64,000 nucleotides of DNA from an uncultured bacterium. GTDB taxonomy: Bacteria > UBP14 > UBA6098 > B30-G16. Made by a program: the position numbers and the translations under genes. The stretch covers positions 8,240 to 72,239 of the forward strand of contig CBEVQY010000009.1 of the NCBI GenBank assembly GCA_965552135.1. Direction: 5' to 3'. Within the stretch, counting starts at the first letter, position 1; the number at the start of each line of letters is the position of its first letter. The notes below the pieces were generated by a model. That model searched no databases. It saw only the letters and a list, made by a program, of their open reading frames with translations, and had not been told where the DNA came from. Of this stretch, positions 4,545 through 42,862 are shown piece by piece.

Positions 4545-5939
4545 ATGGTTGAGCTCAGGCTCATACAGCGCCCCGAGCTGCGGCAGATCCTCACGCCGAA
4601 GCTTATCCAAACCCTAAAGCTTTTGCTTTTGCCCAAGGTTGAGCTTGAGGCGCAGCTTCAGCAGGAGCTTATGGAGAACCCGATGCTCGAGGTTACCAGT
4701 CGCGAGCAGGAGCAGAATCCCGCCGAGGTTGAGGAGGGCATACGCGAGTGGCGCAAGCTTTTGGACGGCTTGCGGCTCACGTCGGTTCAGCTTGAGGAGC
4801 GCGAGCCCGACGCCGAACACCCGGATCCGCTCACCTTCACGCGGTACGAGAAAACCCTCTACGAAAGCCTGAGCGAACAGCTTGCTGTAGCTGCACCCAA
4901 CGAACGGATAAAGGCGATAGGCGATTTCATAATAGGCAGCCTCGACGACAGGGGATTTTTGCCCCTAAGCGTTGAGGAGATAGCCAGGGAGCTTGCCCGC
5001 CTCGGCGAGATAGACCCTCCCCCTTCGCCCGAGGAGGTGGAGAAGGCACTTAGGGTCGTGCAGTCCCTTTCGCCCCCTGGGATAGCGGCGCGGGACATAA
5101 GGGAGTCGTTCCTCATCCAGCTCAGGGACCTTGGGCTTGAGGACAGCCTGGCTTACATCATAGTTCGCGACCATTTTTCAAACCTCCTGCGCAAAAACGT
5201 AATCCAGCTTGCCGACAGCCTCGGCGTTTCGGAGGAGGAGGTGGAGCACGCCTTAGAGGTCCTCTCGCACCTAACGCTTTTCCCCGCCGAGGGGCGCGGA
5301 GTGACCGCAACCGCCGTCGAGCCAGACCTCATAGTCTACAAGGACGAGAGCGGCAGGTGGCAGATCATCTACAACGACGAAAACATCCCCGAGCTTACGA
5401 TAAACAAGCATTACCTAAAGCTTTTGCGCAGCTCCGAGGACCTCAATCCCGAGGCGAAGAAGTTTTTGCTCCAAAAGCTTGAGTCGGCGCGCTGGTGGAT
5501 AGACGCGCTGAGGCAAAGGCGCGAGACGCTTGTGGCGACTATGCGGGCGATACTCAAGTTTCAGCGCGACTTCTTCGAGGAAGGACCCGAAAATATAAAG
5601 CCCCTCACGATGGAGACCGTTGCCAACGAGGTCGGCGTTCATCCCGCCACCATATCCCGCGTCGTCAGGGATAAATACGTCCTCACGCCCTACGGCACCT
5701 TCCCGATGAGGCGGTTCTTCACCACGGGTATCGCCGCCAAGGGGGGCGGTCAGGTCGCGACCGAAGCCGTGAAGCGCCGCATAAGGGAGATAATCGACTC
5801 CGAGGACAAGTCGAAGCCCTACTCTGATCAGAAGATAGCCGAAATCCTCCAAAGCGAAGGGATTCAAATAGCCCGCCGCACGGTGGCGAAATACCGCGAG
5901 CAGATGGGAATACTTCCCGCAAGGAGGCGCAAGAGGTGA
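4545..5939 (+). CDS. rpoN: RNA polymerase sigma-54 factor
   Basis: Region I is MVELRLIQRPELRQILTPKLIQTLKLLLLP and the C-terminal RpoN box is ARRTVAKYRE. The track start (TTG 4344) adds a 67-aa R/G-rich extension not expected in sigma-54, so the start was moved to ATG 4545. Confidence 0.93.
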   Translation: MVELRLIQRPELRQILTPKLIQTLKLLLLPKVELEAQLQQELMENPMLEVTSREQEQNPAEVEEGIREWRKLLDGLRLTSVQLEEREPDAEHPDPLTFTRYEKTLYESLSEQLAVAAPNERIKAIGDFIIGSLDDRGFLPLSVEEIARELARLGEIDPPPSPEEVEKALRVVQSLSPPGIAARDIRESFLIQLRDLGLEDSLAYIIVRDHFSNLLRKNVIQLADSLGVSEEEVEHALEVLSHLTLFPAEGRGVTATAVEPDLIVYKDESGRWQIIYNDENIPELTINKHYLKLLRSSEDLNPEAKKFLLQKLESARWWIDALRQRRETLVATMRAILKFQRDFFEEGPENIKPLTMETVANEVGVHPATISRVVRDKYVLTPYGTFPMRRFFTTGIAAKGGGQVATEAVKRRIREIIDSEDKSKPYSDQKIAEILQSEGIQIARRTVAKYREQMGILPARRRKR

Positions 5940-11755: not shown

Positions 11756-11812
11756 GCGGGTAGGCAGGGGGTGGTCCCCTGGGGAGAACCTTAAAACAAG
11801 GAGGGTGTGGAG

Positions 11813-12103
11813 ATGGCGAATGTGACGAAGGAGGAACTGGTCACGCGCGTGGCGCGGGCGACGAACGTGCCGAAGACGCAGGTCAACACGGTGCTTAAGG
11901 CAACGCTTGAGGAGATCACCAAAGCCCTCAAGAAGGGCGACAAGGTGAGCCTCATAGGCTTCGGCACCTTCCTCGCTGCCAAGAGGGCTGCTCGCAAGGG
12001 CAGAAACCCCCAGACCGGCGAGGAGATCCGCATTCCCGCCACCACCGTGCCGAAGTTCCGTCCCGGTAAGGCGCTCAAGGAGGCGGTGGCGAAGAAGAGG
12101 TAA
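11813..12103 (+). CDS. hup: Nucleoid protein HU (DNA-binding protein HU/IHF family)
   Basis: Sequence is MANVTKEELVTRVARATNVPKTQVNTVLKATLEEITKALKKGDKVSLIGFGTF...RNPQTGEEIRIPATTVPKFRPGKALKEAV. AAGGAGGG lies 8 nt upstream of ATG 11813. Confidence 0.93.
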   Translation: MANVTKEELVTRVARATNVPKTQVNTVLKATLEEITKALKKGDKVSLIGFGTFLAAKRAARKGRNPQTGEEIRIPATTVPKFRPGKALKEAVAKKR

Positions 12104-12130
12104 TACCCTCCTTCGGTCGAAAGCGGAAGA

Positions 12131-12166
12131 GAAAGCCCTCCCCCCGGGGAGGGCTTTCTTTGTTGT
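12131..12166. terminator. Rho-independent terminator between convergent hup and the RND gene
   Basis: GC-rich hairpin GAAAGCCCTCCCC/GGGGAGGGCTTTC (12131-12158) is followed by CTTTGTTGTT. Confidence 0.7.
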
Positions 12167-12178
12167 TGTGGGGAAGCT

Positions 12179-15100
12179 TTATTCTTCGTCCACTCCAAGC
12201 AGGCGCTTTGTGCCCTTCACCGCCTTCTCCGAGACGCGCTCGAAGATCGAGTAGACGACGGGAATGACCAAAAGGGTCAGGAAGGTTGCCGTTGCAAGCC
12301 CGCCAATTACGGCGATCGCCATGGGGGACCTCATCTCGGAGCCCTGGCTGCGCGAAAGCGCCATAGGCAGCATGCCGAATATCGTCGTCAGCGCCGTTAT
12401 GAGGACCGGGCGCATCCTGAGCCTTCCAGCCTCAAGGAGCGCCTCGCGAATCCCGTAGCCCTTCTCCCTGCGGAGCTGATTGACGAAGTCGACCAGAACG
12501 ATCCCGTTGTTGACCACGATGCCGGCTAAGATCACAACCCCCATAAACGACGGAAGCGAAAGCGTTTTGCCCGTTATAAGCAGCGCCCACATAACGCCTA
12601 TTATACAGAGGGGCTCGGTGAACATTATAACGAACGGGTGCAGGAACGACTCGAACTGCGACGCCATAACCATATAGACCAGAAGGAGCGCCACAACGAT
12701 GGCGATCGTCATCCACTTGAAGAGGTCCTTCATCTGTTTTGCCTGTCCGCCTATCTCGAAGACGTACCCCTCCTCCCACGCTGGCGAGTTGTAGAGCGCA
12801 AGCATAGCCTTCTTGACCTTGGCTGTCGTTCTCCTCAGGTCGTAGCCCTCCCTGACGGTGATGCCCAGCGATACTTTGCGCTTTTGGTCCTCGCGCTGTA
12901 TCTCGACGGGACCTATTACCCTCACTGTATCGGCCACCTGCGATAGCGGGACGACCGCGCCGGTGGGCGAAACCACAGGCAGCGACATTATCTGCGATAT
13001 CTTCGACCGCTCGGCCTCATCGAGCTTGACCACGATATCGATCTGACCCGACGGGTCGTTGAATCGCCCTGCGAATGCGCCGAGGGTGTAGGTTTTTATG
13101 GCGTTTGCCACCTGCGCCGCCGAAAGACCAAGACGGGCGCACTTTTCCTTGTTCGGAATTATCCTGAGCTCGGGCAGACCCTCCCTGTACGATAGCTGGA
13201 TGCTGCCGACGCCCTCTATCTTTTTGATCCGTTCCAACGCTGTGTTCGCGAGGCGCCGCAGGACCGAAAGGTCCTGCCCGAAGATCTTGACCTCGATATC
13301 CCCGCTTATTGCCCCGCCGAACATCTGGGACGACATATCCACAACCACGAACCTCGAGTCCCTAAGCTTAGGGAAGACCCTGCGGAGCTCCTCCGTTATC
13401 TGGTAGGATGTCTTTTTCCTGTTCTCCTTGAACTTCAGGCGCATGAACACGGCGCCTTCGTTGACGTTCGTTGGTGTTCCCTGTGAGCCTGCGCCCAGGT
13501 CGAACTCGCTGCCCTGGATCCTTCCCACTATCATTCCCGAAAAGAGCACGTCGGGCTCAGCCTCTGCCACGCTTGCGAGCTCGTGGGCAATGTCGATCGT
13601 CTGCTCTATAGGCGTTCCGCGCGGGAGGGAGAAGAACACCTGCGTAAACGGTGGGTCGAATTTCGGGATGAACTCACCGCCCACAAGAGGGTAAAGGGCG
13701 ATCGAAGCCAAAAAGAGGAACGCCACCGCGGCGAGGGTTGCCGCTTTGTGGTCGAGGCACCATGCCAGAAGCCTCACGTATTTTTCGCGCAGCACCTCGA
13801 ACCACTTTGCCCCTCGCATCGACGATGCGCCCTCGCGCTTGAATATCTGCGCCGCGATGACGGGGACGATCGTGAGCGCCACGAAAAGCGACGAAAGCAG
13901 CGCAAACGCTATGGTGAGCGCAAAACCCTTCGAAAGCTGTCCCGTGATGCCGGGCACAAAAAGCACCGGGAAGAAGACTGCGATGGTGGTAAGCGTCGAT
14001 GCGGTGATCGCCATTCCCACCTGTGCGGCGCCCTTGCCCGCTGCGACTATGCGGTTATGTCCCTCTTCGATCAAGCGGTAGATGTTCTCTATAACCACAA
14101 CCGCGTTGTCCACAAGCATCCCCACGCCGAGCATAAGCCCCACCATAGTCATCAGGTTCAGCGTGTATCCCGCAGCCCAGATGGCTATGAACGTCGCGAT
14201 GATGGAGAGGGGTATAGCGAGGCTTATCGCCACGGTCGGTCTTATCGAGCGCAGGAAGATGAAGATGAAAAGCATTGCCAAAAGCGCGCCCACAATGCCG
14301 TTGTCCCTGGTGCGGGCTATGACGCGACGAATGAGCTCCGACATGTCGAACATCTTGTAGAGCTTGGTGTTTTTGGGGAGGATCTCCTTGATCTCATCCA
14401 CCTCTTTGAGGACCTTTCGCATGACGTTTACGGTGTTTGCGCCGCTTTCCTTGGAGATCATGATCCAGAGTCCCTCGCGTCCCGACACCTCGGCTCTGCC
14501 GCGCACCTCCTTGTTGCTGAAGCGTATCTCCGCAACGTCGCGGAGATGGACCGGCTTGTAGTCTTTCGTCATCCCGACGACGACGTCCCCCACCTCGTCA
14601 AGCGACCTGAACTCGCCGTATGTCCGGAGGAGATACTCCTTGTTTCTGTCGACCACGTATCCCGCGGGCATGTTGACGTTGTTGAACATGAGAGCCATTC
14701 TGATGTTTTGGGGGTCGATTCCCATTGCCGTTATCTTGGCTGGGTCGAGCAGGACCTGAACCTCTCGGTCCCTCCACCCCCAAACCGATACCGCGGCAAC
14801 GCCTTCTATACGCTCAAGGCGCGCTTTTATCACGTCCTCGGCGATGTCGTGCAGTCTGTTGAAGTCGATGTCGCCCGTGTAGGCGTAAGCGGCTATGGGC
14901 ATAAGCGAGACGTCGAACTTGAGGACCAGCGGGTCCTCAGCTCCCTCGGGCAAAAGGTGCTTGAAGGTGCTTATCTGATCCCTTATGTCCTGCGCCGCGA
15001 AGTCGAGGTTCGTACCCCACTCAAACTCCACAATTATGACCGACATCCCCTCCCTCGAGAAGGACTTGATGCCTTTGACGCCGCTTATGAGGGCAAGCAT

Positions 15101-15313
15101 CTCCTCGAGGGGCTGGGTGAGTTGGCGCTCGACATCCTCCGGCGCGGCGCCCTCCCACCTCGTCAGAACCGAAACCGACGGGTACGATATATCGGGCAAA
15201 AGATCAAGCCCCAGGTTGAGCAGTGAATAAACCCCCAAAACGACAACGATGCCTATAAGCATCGTCACCGTCACGGGGCGTTTGACCGAAAACTCAGGAA
15301 TCGACACAGCCAA
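12179..15313 (-). CDS. RND efflux transporter permease (AcrB/AcrD/AcrF family)
   Basis: 1044 aa. It starts MAVSIPEFSVKRPVTVTMLIGIVVVLG and has the typical 12-TM, two-large-loop architecture. Confidence 0.92.
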   Translation of the reverse strand: MAVSIPEFSVKRPVTVTMLIGIVVVLGVYSLLNLGLDLLPDISYPSVSVLTRWEGAAPEDVERQLTQPLEEMLALISGVKGIKSFSREGMSVIIVEFEWGTNLDFAAQDIRDQISTFKHLLPEGAEDPLVLKFDVSLMPIAAYAYTGDIDFNRLHDIAEDVIKARLERIEGVAAVSVWGWRDREVQVLLDPAKITAMGIDPQNIRMALMFNNVNMPAGYVVDRNKEYLLRTYGEFRSLDEVGDVVVGMTKDYKPVHLRDVAEIRFSNKEVRGRAEVSGREGLWIMISKESGANTVNVMRKVLKEVDEIKEILPKNTKLYKMFDMSELIRRVIARTRDNGIVGALLAMLFIFIFLRSIRPTVAISLAIPLSIIATFIAIWAAGYTLNLMTMVGLMLGVGMLVDNAVVVIENIYRLIEEGHNRIVAAGKGAAQVGMAITASTLTTIAVFFPVLFVPGITGQLSKGFALTIAFALLSSLFVALTIVPVIAAQIFKREGASSMRGAKWFEVLREKYVRLLAWCLDHKAATLAAVAFLFLASIALYPLVGGEFIPKFDPPFTQVFFSLPRGTPIEQTIDIAHELASVAEAEPDVLFSGMIVGRIQGSEFDLGAGSQGTPTNVNEGAVFMRLKFKENRKKTSYQITEELRRVFPKLRDSRFVVVDMSSQMFGGAISGDIEVKIFGQDLSVLRRLANTALERIKKIEGVGSIQLSYREGLPELRIIPNKEKCARLGLSAAQVANAIKTYTLGAFAGRFNDPSGQIDIVVKLDEAERSKISQIMSLPVVSPTGAVVPLSQVADTVRVIGPVEIQREDQKRKVSLGITVREGYDLRRTTAKVKKAMLALYNSPAWEEGYVFEIGGQAKQMKDLFKWMTIAIVVALLLVYMVMASQFESFLHPFVIMFTEPLCIIGVMWALLITGKTLSLPSFMGVVILAGIVVNNGIVLVDFVNQLRREKGYGIREALLEAGRLRMRPVLITALTTIFGMLPMALSRSQGSEMRSPMAIAVIGGLATATFLTLLVIPVVYSIFERVSEKAVKGTKRLLGVDEE

Positions 15314-35766: not shown

Positions 35767-36462
35767 ATGCGATATCGGCTGGCTTTTGTCGTTTTGTTTT
35801 CCGTGCTTTTCCTTGCGGGCTGCGCCCTGCAGCGCCTGCCCGAGGATGAATACGCCCGCCGCGCTGTCGATGCACTCCGACAGGGAAGGCTCAACGACGC
35901 ATGGGCGTACTACAGACTCCTTTTGGCATACTACCCCCAAAGCCCGAAGGCTTGGCAGTACAAAAGCCAGCTTGCCGAGGTCCTGACGAAGCTCGTTCAG
36001 CAAAAGCCCGAGCACATCGCAAACGGCTACCTTTGGGAGCTTAGGTCGCTCGGCGAGGTGACCGATACCGTCCTTGCGTGGGTGACCTTCCAGAAGGCTT
36101 GCAGGGAGAGCTCTGCAAAAAGGTCCGAGGCGATTCTCTCCCAGATGAGCTACCGCGACTTTATGCTTGCGGCGCAGTACGCAATAAACAGGATGCGCTT
36201 CAAAGATGCCCTCAGCGCCTACGAACAGGCTATCGACCGGTTCCCGCAAAACCCGCAGGTTTACAAGGCGATGTTCCTTGCGGGCTTTGTTTGCTCCGAG
36301 TATCTGAAGGACTTCGACAAGGCGCGCATGTTCTACAAAGCCGTCGTCGAGAAGTTTCCAAACTGCGACCTCGCCGACGACGCCCAGTGGATGCTGGAGA
36401 ACATGGGCAAGCCCCCCGAGGAGATGACCTTCATAGCGCCCGATACGTCGTCAGCCCGGTAG
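35767..36462 (+). CDS. TPR-like lipoprotein (BamD/YbgF-like)
   Basis: Lipobox LFLAGC in MRYRLAFVVLFSVLFLAGCALQ, and TPR-like helices (DALSAYEQAIDRFPQNPQ...ARMFYKAVVEKFPNCDLADDAQ). Confidence 0.7.
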   Translation: MRYRLAFVVLFSVLFLAGCALQRLPEDEYARRAVDALRQGRLNDAWAYYRLLLAYYPQSPKAWQYKSQLAEVLTKLVQQKPEHIANGYLWELRSLGEVTDTVLAWVTFQKACRESSAKRSEAILSQMSYRDFMLAAQYAINRMRFKDALSAYEQAIDRFPQNPQVYKAMFLAGFVCSEYLKDFDKARMFYKAVVEKFPNCDLADDAQWMLENMGKPPEEMTFIAPDTSSAR

Positions 36463-36480
36463 GGTCGTCGGGCTCTTTTT
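36453..36480 (+). terminator. Weak terminator overlapping the stop codon of the lipoprotein gene
   Basis: AGCCCG-N10-CGGGCT followed by CTTTTT. Confidence 0.45.
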
Positions 36481-36776
36481 GGGGTGCGTTTGGCGCGGAC
36501 AATTTGGAAGGGGCGTTTGTAGCGTTCCTGGAACGGGGCGCCCCTGACGGAGGAAATGGGGCATTGAGCGGGACGGCATTTGGTTGCAGGTGCGCTCAGC
36601 TGGAACGAGGGCGCGTTTGAACGGCTGGAAGGAAGCGCGTCTGATCAGCAAAGGAGCGCGTTTGATCAGCTGGGGGCGCGTTCGAGCGGAGGGGAGGGGT
36701 GCGTTTGAGCAGTCAGAAGGGGCACGTTCGGTAGGTGCCCGTTGTGTTTGAGCGAAAGGTGGGCGCGTCAGGCGCC
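36481..36776 (+). repeat. Array of about 13 degenerate ~22-bp tandem repeats (core GCGTTTGA)
   Basis: Cores start at 36486, 36513, 36561, 36576, 36592, 36613, 36637, 36658, 36678, 36701, 36724, 36744 and 36765. Spacing is mostly 20-24 bp. All three plus-strand frames contain stops. Confidence 0.8.
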
Positions 36777-37850
36777 TTTTTCTTCGTCCAGCAGGGCGTT
36801 GAGTTCCTCGACGAGGGCGTCGACTATCTCGGATTTGGGAACCTTCCTTATCGCCTTTCCCTTGCGGAAGATGAGCGCTTGTCCCCTTCCGCACGCGACG
36901 CCGACATCGGCGTGCGATGCCTCTCCGGGGCCGTTGACGACGCAGCCCATCACGGCGACGGTGACGTCGGCGTCTACGTCCTTTATGCGCTCCCAGACCT
37001 CCCTTGCCACGCGTTGCACGTCGACCTCGCAGCGGGCGCAAGTGGGGCAGCTTAGAAGCCTTATGCCGTATCGCCTGAGTCCGAGGCTTCGCAGCACCTC
37101 CCTCGCAACGCGGACCTCCTGCTCGGGCGGCTCGGTGAGCGAAACCCGAACGGTGTCGCCAAGCCCCGCCGCCAGGAGAATCGAAAGCCCGCAGGCGGAA
37201 GCCACAACCCCCTGGAGGCCGAACCCCGCCTCCGTCACGCCGACGTGCAGCGGATAGTCGAACCGCTCTGCGAAGATTGAGTTCGCCTCGAGCGTGTCCC
37301 TCGGCGAGGACGACTTAAGCGAAACCACGATGTCGCTGAACCCAGTCTCCTCGAGGATGCGGCACTGACGCTCGGCGGCTTCGACGAGTGCCTGTGGCGT
37401 TGGTCCGCCGTGGCGCAGGAGGATATCTTTGGGCAGCGAGCCCGCGTTGACGCCAACGCGTATCGGTATGCCCCTCTGTGCGGCTGCAGCGGCTATCTGC
37501 CGAACGCGATCCGCGGAGCCTATGTTGCCGGGGTTTATGCGGAGCTTGTGCGCTCCAGCCTCGATGGCAGCGAGGGCGAGCCTGTAGTCGAAGTGTATGT
37601 CGGCGATGATGGGCAGCGGTGCCCGCTTTACGATTTCACGCAGCGCTTTCGCCGAAGCTTCGTCGGGCACGGCAACGCGGAAAAGATCACCGCCGGCGCG
37701 CGCAACAGCCTCGCACTGCCTCAAAACGGCGGCAACGTCCGTCGTCGCGACCTTTGCCATCGATTGAACCGCTATGGGCTCCCCACCGCCTATCGCAACG
37801 TCGCCTATCCTCACGCGGCGGCTCCTGCGCCTGCGGAAAAACTCACTCAT
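36768..37850 (-). CDS. ispG: 4-hydroxy-3-methylbut-2-en-1-yl diphosphate synthase
   Basis: Sequence is MSEFFRRRRSRRVRIGDVAIGGGEPIAVQSM...INPGNIG...SCPTCARC...MGCVVNGPGEA. The start was moved from 38153 to ATG 37850. Confidence 0.93.
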   Translation of the reverse strand: MSEFFRRRRSRRVRIGDVAIGGGEPIAVQSMAKVATTDVAAVLRQCEAVARAGGDLFRVAVPDEASAKALREIVKRAPLPIIADIHFDYRLALAAIEAGAHKLRINPGNIGSADRVRQIAAAAAQRGIPIRVGVNAGSLPKDILLRHGGPTPQALVEAAERQCRILEETGFSDIVVSLKSSSPRDTLEANSIFAERFDYPLHVGVTEAGFGLQGVVASACGLSILLAAGLGDTVRVSLTEPPEQEVRVAREVLRSLGLRRYGIRLLSCPTCARCEVDVQRVAREVWERIKDVDADVTVAVMGCVVNGPGEASHADVGVACGRGQALIFRKGKAIRKVPKSEIVDALVEELNALLDEEKGA

Positions 37851-38781
37851 CCGAATCCCCCCTCCGCCAGATTCCGATGATCTCCTCTGCGATCTCCTCG
37901 GTTTTACGCCCCGTTGCGTCCACCCAGACGAGGTTGGGTTCGCGTCTGAACCACACAAGCTGCCTGCGGGCGTAGCGCTTCGTGTCGCGGGTGATTCGGC
38001 GAAACATCTCCTCCCACTCAAGCTCGCCCCGAAGGTACGACACGACGGTTCTGTATCCGATTGACGAAAGCGCCGGCGCATCCGGCTCGATGCCGCTTTC
38101 CAAAAGCCTTTTGACCTCGTCGACCCAGCCCGCCTCAAGCATCCGAAGCACACGCTCCTCTATGCGCCTGTAAAGAAGCGTTCTTTCCATTGTGATGCAA
38201 ATCTTTGTGAACCTCCATCCTTCAGGCGGCTTGGTTTTCGTTCTCCACCAGTACGATATGGGCTTTCCCGAGACGATGTATACCTCCAGGGCGCGCTCTA
38301 TGCGGACGTAGTTTTTGGGATCGATCCTTTTTGCCGCCTCCGGGTCGACGGATGCGAGCCACGAGTATAGGTCTTCGCCGCTTTCGTACCGTTTTCTGAG
38401 GCTGCGGCGCACCTCGGGGTCCCTGAACTCGCCGGGGAAGATACCCACCGTAAGCGCGCGTATGTAAAGCCCCGTTCCGCCGACGACTATCGGGACCTTG
38501 CTGCGCGAGGTGATCTCCTCCATCGCCTCGACGGCGTCGCGCACGAAGCGCGCTGCGTCGTAGCGCTCGCGGGGATCGAGTATGTCCACAAGCCAGTGTC
38601 GAACGCGCGGGCTTTTGGGCTTGGCTGTGCCGATATCGAGTCCGCGGTAGATTTGCCTCGAGTCGGCTGAGATGATCTCCCCGCCGAGCGCAAGCGCAAC
38701 CTCCTCGCCCACGGCGCTTTTGCCAACCGCCGTCGGACCGCAGATGACAAGACAGCACCTCAGATCCTTCCGAGCCGCCAT
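37843..38781 (-). CDS. miaA: tRNA dimethylallyltransferase
   Basis: P-loop ICGPTAVGKS, plus SADSRQIYRGLDIGTAKP. The start was moved from 39090 to ATG 38781. There is an 8-nt overlap with ispG. Confidence 0.92.
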   Translation of the reverse strand: MAARKDLRCCLVICGPTAVGKSAVGEEVALALGGEIISADSRQIYRGLDIGTAKPKSPRVRHWLVDILDPRERYDAARFVRDAVEAMEEITSRSKVPIVVGGTGLYIRALTVGIFPGEFRDPEVRRSLRKRYESGEDLYSWLASVDPEAAKRIDPKNYVRIERALEVYIVSGKPISYWWRTKTKPPEGWRFTKICITMERTLLYRRIEERVLRMLEAGWVDEVKRLLESGIEPDAPALSSIGYRTVVSYLRGELEWEEMFRRITRDTKRYARRQLVWFRREPNLVWVDATGRKTEEIAEEIIGIWRRGDSDE

Positions 38782-38875
38782 CGTCAAAAAATAGCCCGAA
38801 TCCGCGCCGCCGAAAACCGATTTCGCCTTGGAGTGAACACAGGAGAGGTTATCTTTCGAAGGCTGGAGGTGGGTT

Positions 38876-39754
38876 ATGTTAGGTTTTCGCAGGCTTTTTG
38901 GTTTTGGCAGGCGTTGGGGCTTGGCGCTTGGTGCAGGCGGTGCGAGAGGTCTTGCCCACCTGGGCGTCCTCAGGGCGCTGGCGGAGCAAGGGATCGAGGT
39001 GGGCTTTATCGCCGGCGCGAGCATGGGCGCAATAGTGGGAGCTATGTTCGCGCTTTCGCCCGACCACGAGAAGGTTTCGGAGCGCATCATAGGCTACCTC
39101 GAGGCGAACAGGGATAAGCTCCGCCACTTCAGCCTGTTCCACAGGCTCGGGAGAAGGAGGCGGGGGAGCTTTGGGAGCATAAGGAGCACCCTTTTGCGCT
39201 TCTTTTTCTGCACGATCTTGGCGCGAAGGACCTACATCCTCGGCGGGGAGCTTTTGGAGGACTTCATCTGCGCGATGTTGCCGGACGCCGACATAAGAGA
39301 GACGAAGATCCCCTTTGCCGCAGTTGCCTATGATCTTTCCAGCGCGGAGGAGGTTGTCCTTGTGGAGGGCTCCATAAGGCGCGCGGTTATGGCGAGCAGC
39401 TCGATCCCTGGCGTTTTCCCGCCCGTTGACTGGTTCGGCAGGCCCCTTGTGGACGGCGGCGGGATATCGCCCGTTCCGGTGAGCGCCGTAAGGCGCCTTG
39501 GCGCAAGGAGGGTTTTGGCGGTGGATGTCTCGCCACTTCCGAAGCGGCGCACGCCCATCGAAAGCGGGCTTGAGATAATACTGCGCGCCGAAGACGGCGA
39601 AGCCGAAAAGCTCAAACGCCTCGAGCTTGAGGAGGCTGATCTTGTCGTCTGCCCGCCGCTTGGGTCGGTGCAGTGGTGGAGGTTCGAGTACTACGCCAGA
39701 ATAATCGAGCGCGGCTACAGAACAGCCCGCCGAGTGCTTCGGGAAAAGCTTTAG
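38876..39754 (+). CDS. Patatin-like phospholipase
   Basis: Oxyanion motif GAGGARG, nucleophile elbow GASMG, and a DGG dyad motif. Confidence 0.88.
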   Translation: MLGFRRLFGFGRRWGLALGAGGARGLAHLGVLRALAEQGIEVGFIAGASMGAIVGAMFALSPDHEKVSERIIGYLEANRDKLRHFSLFHRLGRRRRGSFGSIRSTLLRFFFCTILARRTYILGGELLEDFICAMLPDADIRETKIPFAAVAYDLSSAEEVVLVEGSIRRAVMASSSIPGVFPPVDWFGRPLVDGGGISPVPVSAVRRLGARRVLAVDVSPLPKRRTPIESGLEIILRAEDGEAEKLKRLELEEADLVVCPPLGSVQWWRFEYYARIIERGYRTARRVLREKL

Positions 39755-42010: not shown

Positions 42011-42862
42011 ATGGTGGCTAAGGGCACCTGTTTTTTCTGGGTTGATGCCTCGTTTGATCCAGACAGTTCCCTGGGAACGTACGGAATATCCATCGATTTT
42101 GAAGGCTCGAGGTGGAATCTATCTGGGGTTATTGGGCGTGCTCCGACGTCACATTGGTGTGAATGGCGAAGCATCGGTATCCTGCTCGAAAAACTGCCCA
42201 AACTGAAAAAGACCTATTCGATTAACACGCCTTACATCACGATAAACATCGACGATCAGTCAATATACGAAGCGATACTTTCCTTAATTCCTCCCCCCCA
42301 CGATCCCCGCGAAGCCAAGCAACTGGCAACAATACAAAACGCTTTGTCAGAGCTTAAGAAGAAAATGCACATAAACTTCGCTTTAGTTTCATCGAGCAAG
42401 AACAGAGCTCATGCGCTTGCTGTTGAGCACCTCAGGCTTCTGACAGGTCGTTACAAGAAGGCGACAAAAACGCCTTCCATTAAGGTGAGCTTGGGCGATT
42501 TTGTTAAGAATAAGCTTTCTCGTTTCTTGGGCTCTGTCTCTTCGACGGCAAGTCGTTCTGAGGGTTGCTCTGAACCGGCTGAGCAAATCGACAGCGGGAA
42601 GAAGGATGCCTTTACCGACCTTCTTGCGTTGCTGCAAAAGATTTATGAAGACAATGGAGTGGGTGAGGCTGAGTTTGCTGAAGTTAAATTGAACTTTCAT
42701 CGCAATGCCGAAGAAGTATATTGGAACTGCAAGATAGTGGTCAGCAGCAAGCCGGGTTCCTTGTCTGTGCCCAGCGATGTTAGTGTTTCTGGGTACAGGG
42801 TTATTGAGATGAGCAGCAAGAGAAAAAGCTTGGAGGTTTCGACAGAGGAGGTATCGCCATGA
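42011..42862 (+). CDS. Hypothetical protein with N-terminal RNase H-like fold, low-GC gene
   Basis: 283 aa with a D-E-D pattern (FWVDASF, HWCEWRSIGILLE, ITINIDDQSIYEAI) and SSKNRAHALA. The C-terminal ~130 aa are unrecognised. It overlaps the next gene by ATGA. Confidence 0.6.
   Translation: MVAKGTCFFWVDASFDPDSSLGTYGISIDFEGSRWNLSGVIGRAPTSHWCEWRSIGILLEKLPKLKKTYSINTPYITINIDDQSIYEAILSLIPPPHDPREAKQLATIQNALSELKKKMHINFALVSSSKNRAHALAVEHLRLLTGRYKKATKTPSIKVSLGDFVKNKLSRFLGSVSSTASRSEGCSEPAEQIDSGKKDAFTDLLALLQKIYEDNGVGEAEFAEVKLNFHRNAEEVYWNCKIVVSSKPGSLSVPSDVSVSGYRVIEMSSKRKSLEVSTEEVSP

Follow-up and report, generated by a model that had tools for sequence, protein, structure and literature searches.

The gap between a TPR lipoprotein gene and the convergent ispG gene on contig CBEVQY010000009.1 of an uncultured bacterium (GenBank assembly GCA_965552135.1) is filled by a degenerate tandem repeat with a unit of about 22 bp. 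The gap extends over 305 bp from one stop codon to the other (36463–36767 of the 64-kb stretch analysed here, hereafter the window) and comprises about 14 head-to-tail segments of 15–28 bp, each opened by a G-rich core. On balance, the gap is probably a lineage-specific, non-coding minisatellite, born of slippage and now decaying, that lies at a breakpoint of synteny and has at most a generic role in separating the two convergent transcription units. An earlier note on this DNA had proposed a CsrB/Rsm-type sponge RNA, an array of DNA-binding sites phased on one helix face, or a decayed minisatellite or repeat-protein gene. Of these three candidates the minisatellite half of the last is best supported, while its repeat-protein half found no support.

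Self-similarity of the array goes well beyond chance. Between 36481 and 36785, 73 pairs of same-strand 12-mers with at most two mismatches were counted, compared with 7.0±4.8 (maximum 26) in 300 dinucleotide-preserving shuffles, which makes the array the top 305-bp tile of the whole window by this measure. The lags between paired 12-mers cluster at 20–25, 43–46, 64–66 and 88. Plain autocorrelation of the array gave no single significant lag because the spacing of the units varies (24, 21, 20, 23 and 23 bp among the good ones), and the pair-count test took the place of fixed-lag autocorrelation as the measure of periodicity. Five units, starting at 36609, 36633, 36654, 36674 and 36697, were the basis of a 16-nt weight matrix, against which they score 20–25 bits; a sixth, at 36720, scores 6.4 bits against this seed matrix and 17.2 bits once folded into a re-estimated one. 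The best score outside the array, over 64 kb and both strands, was 11 bits. Tandem Repeats Finder called two copies only (36629–36670), the sole tandem repeat that it called in the window. The 8-nt cores reported in the earlier note were all found in the sequence where it had placed them: GCGTTTGG at 36486, GCGTTTGT at 36513, GCATTGAG at 36561, GCATTTGG at 36576, GCGCTCAG at 36592, GCGTTTGA at 36613, 36658 and 36701, GCGTCTGA at 36637, GCGTTCGA at 36678, ACGTTCGG at 36724, GTGTTTGA at 36744 and GCGTCAGG at 36765. Its description of the array as 13 units of 22 bp captures a genuine tandem repeat of that length but is generous in its count, since only 5–6 units (36609–36741) are clearly alike.

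These preserved units, numbered 7–12 (36609–36741, plus strand; repeat families D1 and D2, weight-matrix scores of 17–25 bits, Tandem Repeats Finder), share the consensus GGGCGCGTTTGA(N)C(R)G, followed by a purine-rich spacer that is variable in sequence and length. Unit 12 also contains an inverted repeat of its own, GGGCAC-gttcggtag-GTGCCC (36719–36741, plus strand), which folds as RNA at about −12.6 kcal/mol when units are folded individually. The 5' half of the array, units 1–6 (36481–36608, plus strand), is eroded: its units are 15–28 bp long, their matrix scores fall below threshold, and their cores read GTGCGTTTGG, GGGCGTTTGT, GGGGCGCCCC, GGCATTGAG, GGCATTTGG and GCGCTCAG. Unit 13 (36742–36760, plus strand; repeat family D9) is degenerate, with the core GTGTTTGAGC, and unit alignment shows that it and units 1–6 share only a short G(C/T)G..TTTG-like core. 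Preservation is therefore graded, with good units near ispG and eroded units toward the TPR gene. The closest pair of units, 8 and 9 (90% identical according to Tandem Repeats Finder), are neighbors, as expected of recent slippage.

Bacterial minisatellites and variable-number tandem-repeat (VNTR) loci are tandem repeats of 10–100 bp generated by slippage. The array resembles them in its head-to-tail copies of a single unit of about 22 bp, in the adjacency of its most similar copies, in its decay toward one end, and in being lineage-specific, non-coding and intergenic. In contrast with VNTRs used for typing, it is far more degenerate, and its core is much better conserved than its spacer. As a minisatellite the array would be of little import beyond marking a lineage-specific rearrangement, though it could serve as a strain marker.

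No further copy of the unit was detected in the window, either by repeat search or with the weight matrix. A two-unit pattern run on genome contigs and a three-unit pattern run on metagenome contigs returned, among the matches listed, only unrelated generic tandem repeats, whose units happen to contain GCGCGTYYGA and which have no IspG or TPR neighbor and no further similarity to the array. A stricter pattern, requiring the 14-nt core twice, gave 11 matches in a complete scan of 185,579 species genomes, all of them unrelated perfect duplications of 2–5 copies in GC-rich genomes. The pattern scan of viral contigs produced 0 matches, and BLAST searches of plasmids and phages with the array produced none. 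Rfam gave no match at E-values up to 10 over 36300–36950, nor did any part of the whole window reach its gathering score, and Pfam gave no match to any reading frame of the array at E-values up to 10. A separate observation concerns the perfect duplications themselves (L346 7254–7330; L351 about 4586–4720, minus strand; L352, L349 and L137): the duplicated unit covers the last codons and TGA stop of a gene (...GCGCGTCTGA plus about 12–14 nt), each copy carries the stop, and the arrangement suggests slippage at the 3' ends of genes.

Comparison with relatives places the array at a junction that they lack. In the collections searched no relative exceeds 65% protein identity, and the closest lie at 54–65%. 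The best homologues of the TPR protein are 54–57% identical and their genes keep the order rpoC-rpsL-TPR; the TPR gene is followed, across gaps of 28–100 bp, by an RNase T-type exonuclease gene or other genes and never by ispG. The best IspG homologues are 62–65% identical and keep miaA-ispG, and in four loci ispG is followed by a co-directional 16S rRNA gene (L338 5286–6862, L339 4770–6355, L341 4800–5800, L342 4800–5377) across an interval of 180–710 bp that contains a canonical TTGACA-17-TATAAT promoter. No rRNA gene is present in the window, and ispG would therefore have become separated from the rrn operon in the host lineage. Because relatives keep both blocks but never join them, the array lies at a lineage-specific synteny breakpoint, where ispG meets the rpoC-rpsL block rather than 16S, and is without an orthologue. 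No tandem repeat was found at either junction, after TPR or after ispG, in the relatives examined, which are distant ones.

Two observations on these relatives stand apart from the array. Downstream of the closest TPR homologue in GTDB (L001 4680–5100), there are about 2.5 copies of a segment of roughly 180 bp that contains GTGCCAGTTGGCACTTTTGTCAGCGGCTA and a terminator-like hairpin, and the last copy enters the 3' end of a convergent gene of 844 aa. In one relative, a two-gene cassette lies between rpsL and the TPR gene (L096 2878–4679, L097 2758–4559); its products are an ATPase (AAA_15/AAA_21, 400 aa) and a DUF4276 protein (201 aa). A gene for a 993-aa SMC_N/Rad50-like protein lies 3' of the TPR gene in L096, while L097 ends shortly past the TPR gene; the cassette and this gene resemble defence-type insertions in a housekeeping operon.

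From the unit structure and the synteny we infer the following history. The repeat unit, some 22 bp long (GGGCGCGTTTGAnCrG and then a purine-rich tail), would have been amplified by replication slippage or unequal recombination, probably with the hairpin at the ispG stop, itself the last unit, contributing its left arm as the seed. The setting may have been a convergent gap made by a rearrangement that placed ispG beside the rpoC-rpsL-TPR block, and substitutions and small indels would since have degraded the older copies, on the TPR side. A sequence-specific partner of the array most likely does not exist, and the probable effect of the array would be generic, the separation of two convergent transcription units. 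In the plus direction it is flanked by two hairpin-plus-T-run terminators; in the minus direction the ispG transcript would gain a C-rich, G-poor tail of about 300 nt, a composition on which Rho loads.

A terminator scan confirmed the presence of terminator-like hairpins at both ends of the array, as the earlier note had claimed. The first, T1 (36453–36484, plus strand), overlaps the TPR stop and consists of the hairpin AGCCCGGT-AGGGTC-GTCGGGCT (36453–36474) followed by CTTTTT. The second, T2 (36761–36785, plus strand; −10.9 kcal/mol), is unit 14 and consists of GGGCGCGT-CAG-GCGCC (36761–36777) followed by TTTTTCTTC; it overlaps the last codons of ispG, again as claimed, and the ispG stop (36768–36770). 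T2 is in effect the last unit because its left arm, GGGCGCGT, coincides with the opening 8 nt of the repeat; the window contains this 8-mer at five plus-strand sites, of which 36609, 36674 and 36761 belong to the array. Read on the opposite strand, the T run of T2 supplies the codons for the E-E-K residues of the IspG C-terminus, a tail that varies freely among homologues. Terminator-like matches occur in this genome near chance density (29 found versus 21.7±4.5 expected per 20 kb), so that the argument for T1 rests on its position and not on the match. A much better terminator candidate than either, and an example of a strong hairpin in this genome, is found at 12128–12161, where a 15-bp stem, AGAGAAAGCCCTCCCC-CCGG-GGAGGGCTTTCTTT, lies near the ends of minus-strand open reading frames (ORFs) at 11791–12198 and 12179–15313 in a crude ORF call.

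The bracketing of the array by two hairpins of the same orientation is consistent with a different explanation, in which the plus strand yields a G-rich small RNA (sRNA) of about 300 nt ending at T2, transcribed by read-through of T1 from the rpoBC-rpsL-TPR operon or from an unrecognised promoter. Pairing between neighboring GGGCGCGUUU cores would give consecutive 10-bp hairpins in which a multimeric RNA-binding protein would find purine-rich loops and linkers, some with GGA, or else the cores, as its targets, and the RNA would act as a sponge whose level tracks a strongly expressed operon. Only as plus-strand RNA does the core GGGCGCGUUU form a 10-nt palindrome, with GGG pairing with UUU through G·U; adjacent cores pair at 10/10 positions in units 7·8 and 9·10 and at 9/10 in units 11·12. 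The plus strand also folds more stably (−130 kcal/mol, z = −3.1) than the minus strand (−80 kcal/mol, z = −2.1), although such z-scores are inflated for direct repeats with a palindromic core.

Several of these features weigh against a decaying minisatellite. Every one of the eight core substitutions in units 7–12 is a transition and leaves neighboring cores able to form G·U or Watson-Crick pairs, an outcome with a chance of about 4% given a transition share of about two thirds, which hints at constraint at the level of a plus-strand RNA. T2 faces the plus direction and draws its U-tract, encoded in the free-to-vary tail, from IspG codons, an arrangement that makes sense only if plus-strand transcription crosses the array. 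The core in units 7–11 has 3 mismatches in 50 positions whereas the spacers differ in both sequence and length, a pattern that would be expected from constraint on a binding motif; this contrast is partly an ascertainment effect, the units having been aligned on their best-matching part. Finally, the lack of conservation is, given that no relative exceeds 65% identity, absence of evidence and not evidence of neutrality.

The points that favor a plus-strand RNA are suggestive but post hoc, and much else speaks against it. No σ70 promoter was recognised within the array or upstream of it (310 bp contain one 7/12 match, with about 2 expected); canonical promoters are enriched elsewhere in the window (11 found versus 4.2±2.0 in shuffles) and in the rrn leaders of the relatives. 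T1 is a reasonable terminator, and the near-chance density of terminator-like matches applies to both hairpins. The array has no homologue from which covariation could be read, and an eroded 5' half is unexpected for a selected multi-site RNA. A precedent for the proposed source of the transcript is provided by RrA, RrB and RrF of E. coli, sRNAs produced by read-through between the dual terminators of rrn operons, which show CsrA and Hfq binding in vitro (PMC8144298). The array shares with them a place between two co-directional terminators and behind a strongly expressed operon linked to growth rate; unlike them, it is neither short nor non-repetitive, and nothing in it is conserved, whereas those sRNAs are conserved across Enterobacterales (PMC8144298). 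We consider a plus-strand sRNA unlikely. Its more specific form, in which at least six GGGCGCGUUU cores zip into G·U hairpins and titrate an RNA-binding protein without classical GGA recognition, thereby coupling that protein to expression of the transcription and translation machinery, appears to us distinctly unlikely. If true, such a sponge would represent a new class of regulator, fed by read-through and built from a non-GGA repeat in an uncultured lineage, a claim of which the evidence falls short.

The lead candidate of the earlier note, a sponge of the CsrB/Rsm type, is not supported by the features that define that class. The 12 GGA triplets that it reported on the plus strand are indeed present (36497–36693). 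However, they are what composition predicts for a sequence with 42% G: dinucleotide shuffles contain 8.8±2.1, with 109 of 1000 reaching 12, and some coding tiles of the window hold 13–15. The triplets also fall in the variable, least conserved segment of the unit, while the conserved part is GGGCGCGTTTGA, the opposite of the arrangement in CsrB and RsmZ. Over the Boltzmann ensemble the mean unpaired probability of GGA is 0.45, compared with 0.35 overall, so that most GGA is paired, which counts against the plus-strand sRNA as well; local core-to-core hairpins would expose some of it. Neither csrA (by tblastn) nor hfq was found in the 64-kb window.

Protein-sponge sRNAs are known mainly from Proteobacteria, and to our knowledge the host lies outside the lineages where CsrB/Rsm-type sRNAs occur. 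The array does resemble CsrB, CsrC and RsmX/Y/Z in comprising about 300 nt of non-coding sequence with about a dozen GGA triplets, in ending in a hairpin and U-run, and in the capacity of its cores, when paired with their neighbors, to form a row of hairpins with purine-rich loops or linkers. Unlike those RNAs, its conserved element is GGGCGCGUUUGA and not A(N)GGA, its GGA content is at composition level, and it is without a recognised σ70 promoter, an Rfam match or a csrA gene within view.

Read on the other strand, the gap (36463–36767) would extend the ispG transcript at its 3' end with C-rich, G-poor sequence. No other 300 nt of the window is as skewed toward G over C as the array, where the ratio is 2.3, and no intrinsic terminator was found on the minus strand within the gap. 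Rho-dependent termination in the array is therefore plausible, ispG having no intrinsic terminator of its own. By the rule of RhoTermPredict, a Rho-utilization (RUT) site is a 78-nt window in which C/G exceeds 1 and C recurs at regular intervals, with a pause hairpin after it (PMC6407284). All 228 of the 228 minus-strand 78-nt windows of the gap pass, with C/G of 1.6–3.45, although this is weak evidence since about 30% of all 78-nt windows do so. Windows with C/G of at least 2 number 2853 over both strands of the 64 kb, of which 173 fall in the 305-bp gap.

These properties raise the possibility that the gap is a selected zone of Rho-dependent termination, or insulator, in which the G-rich plus strand is kept for the sake of a weakly structured ispG tail that loads Rho and halts antisense transcription into rpsL-rpoC, the repeat being a mere way in which the tract was built. 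The window-wide maximum of the C/G ratio over 300 nt of minus-strand RNA, the passage of every gap window and the weak fold of the minus strand (−80 versus −130 kcal/mol) agree with this proposal, as does the GC-rich T1 palindrome, which lies downstream on the minus strand and could act as a pause hairpin; Rho itself is encoded in one relative (L339). Against it, the skewed composition follows automatically from that of the unit, and the criteria for RUT sites are permissive. Pyrimidine-C dimers are not enriched (75 observed versus 80 expected), and no such tract is needed after ispG in relatives. As in rut regions, a gene without an intrinsic terminator is followed by a transcript tail longer than 80 nt that is rich in C, poor in G and weakly structured; in contrast, rut sites are not repeat arrays, and the match here is by composition alone. 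We know of no need for repeats in Rho sites, which also counts against selection for such a zone, and we regard the proposal as improbable.

Unlike either RNA, an array of DNA sites would act as double-stranded DNA, each GGGCGCGTTTGA core binding a monomer or dimer every two helical turns or so, as in an iteron, a plasmid centromere or a loading zone for a nucleoid protein. Direct-repeat spacing of about 22 bp is the geometry of plasmid iterons, and the array offers 5–6 direct repeats with a conserved core of 12–14 bp at a mean spacing of about 22 bp. The proposal that the sites are phased on one helix face is nevertheless weakened by the 20–24-bp jitter of the spacing, which rotates sites by up to about 70 degrees around the helix, and by the absence of any rep, par or regulator gene nearby. 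A convergent gap has no promoter to regulate, the GC content across the array (0.61–0.63) leaves no AT-rich unwinding element, there is no GC-skew switch, and the 64-kb window and the plasmid and phage searches yielded neither another unit copy nor any similarity. The array is like plasmid iterons and type I/II centromere repeats in having direct repeats of about 20 bp some two helical turns apart, and unlike them in its irregular spacing and in its location amid chromosomal housekeeping genes. A role as a set of DNA-binding sites is very unlikely.

Least credible of all is the idea that the array is what remains of a heptad-repeat protein gene, read as GAFEQLE on the plus strand or as FQLLKRAP on the minus strand, whose frame was lost through indels. 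A unit of about 21 bp does correspond to 7 codons, plus-frame peptides have a GAFxxLEG-like periodicity, and one minus-strand frame is open through the array, as the earlier note had observed. This open frame has neither a start codon nor a ribosome-binding site, and all plus-strand frames are stopped, the stops previously listed (TAG at 36520, TGA at 36545 and TGA at 36618) being present in three different frames. With units of 20, 21, 23 and 24 bp no frame is maintained, the array frames have no Pfam match, no relative carries a gene at the position of the array, and the IspG C-terminus is intact. Its length, normal in comparison with 8 homologues, together with the lack of a Pfam match in any frame, also bears out the view that the array is not part of a neighboring gene.

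The earlier note was likewise right to set aside two familiar classes of repeat. Clustered regularly interspaced short palindromic repeat (CRISPR) arrays have identical repeats of 23–50 bp and unique spacers of similar length, whereas the units here are degenerate and abut without spacers; and the absence of another copy in the window argues against a family of repetitive extragenic palindromes (REP). Further candidates were tried and rejected. In type III toxin-antitoxin systems the ToxI-like repeat units are 34–45 nt long and near-identical, whereas the units here are degenerate and of about 22 nt, and the next gene is the convergent ispG and not a co-directional ToxN/AbiQ-like toxin gene. 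A remnant of a 16S gene or its leader was considered, since units share GTTTGATC and GCTCAG with the 16S 5' end, but both strands scored below shuffle means when compared with three leader-plus-16S sequences. The likeness of the units to the boxA-like stretch CTTTGA(G/C/A)AA(C/T)GGAACAGT of relatives' leaders is confined to TTTGA..ACGG, lies on the wrong strand relative to ispG and is attributed to chance. That stretch is shared by the rrn leaders of three relatives (L339 4655–4680, L341 4693–4715, L338 5183–5205) and is probably the NusB/NusE antitermination box of the lineage. σ54 promoters, suggested by TGGAAC-N-GCGC in the units, were rejected by eye because the spacing from GG to GC is off by at least 1 in every unit. 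The G-runs are about 20 nt apart, too far for a canonical G-quadruplex, and a replication origin or terminus is contradicted by the lack of a GC-skew switch and of an AT-rich region.

The TPR lipoprotein gene (35767–36462, plus strand; 231 aa, lipobox LAGC) was taken from the ORF list and matches Pfam TPR_14, TPR_6 and YfiO-like families; it closes the rpoC-rpsL-TPR block and bounds the gap on the left. ispG, also known as gcpE (36768–37850, minus strand; 360 aa), is convergent with it, forms the right border, and was identified by Pfam GcpE (E=1.7e-139) and homologue alignment. The mechanical ORFs for ispG (36768–38153, 461 aa) and miaA (37843–39090, 415 aa) have spurious long N-terminal extensions; homology places the ispG start at 37850 (MSEFF...), which gives an 8-nt overlap with the miaA stop at 37843. 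The neighbors are housekeeping genes, rpoB, rpoC, rpsL and TPR on the plus strand and ispG and miaA on the minus strand, with genes for a patatin, a CCA-adding enzyme and fatty-acid oxidation enzymes farther away. Within the fatty-acid oxidation cluster, an ORF of 283 aa without a Pfam match (42011–42862) has a third-position GC content of 0.53, compared with about 0.73 in its neighbors; it sits in a 2-kb stretch of lower GC (0.515) and may be foreign or miscalled.

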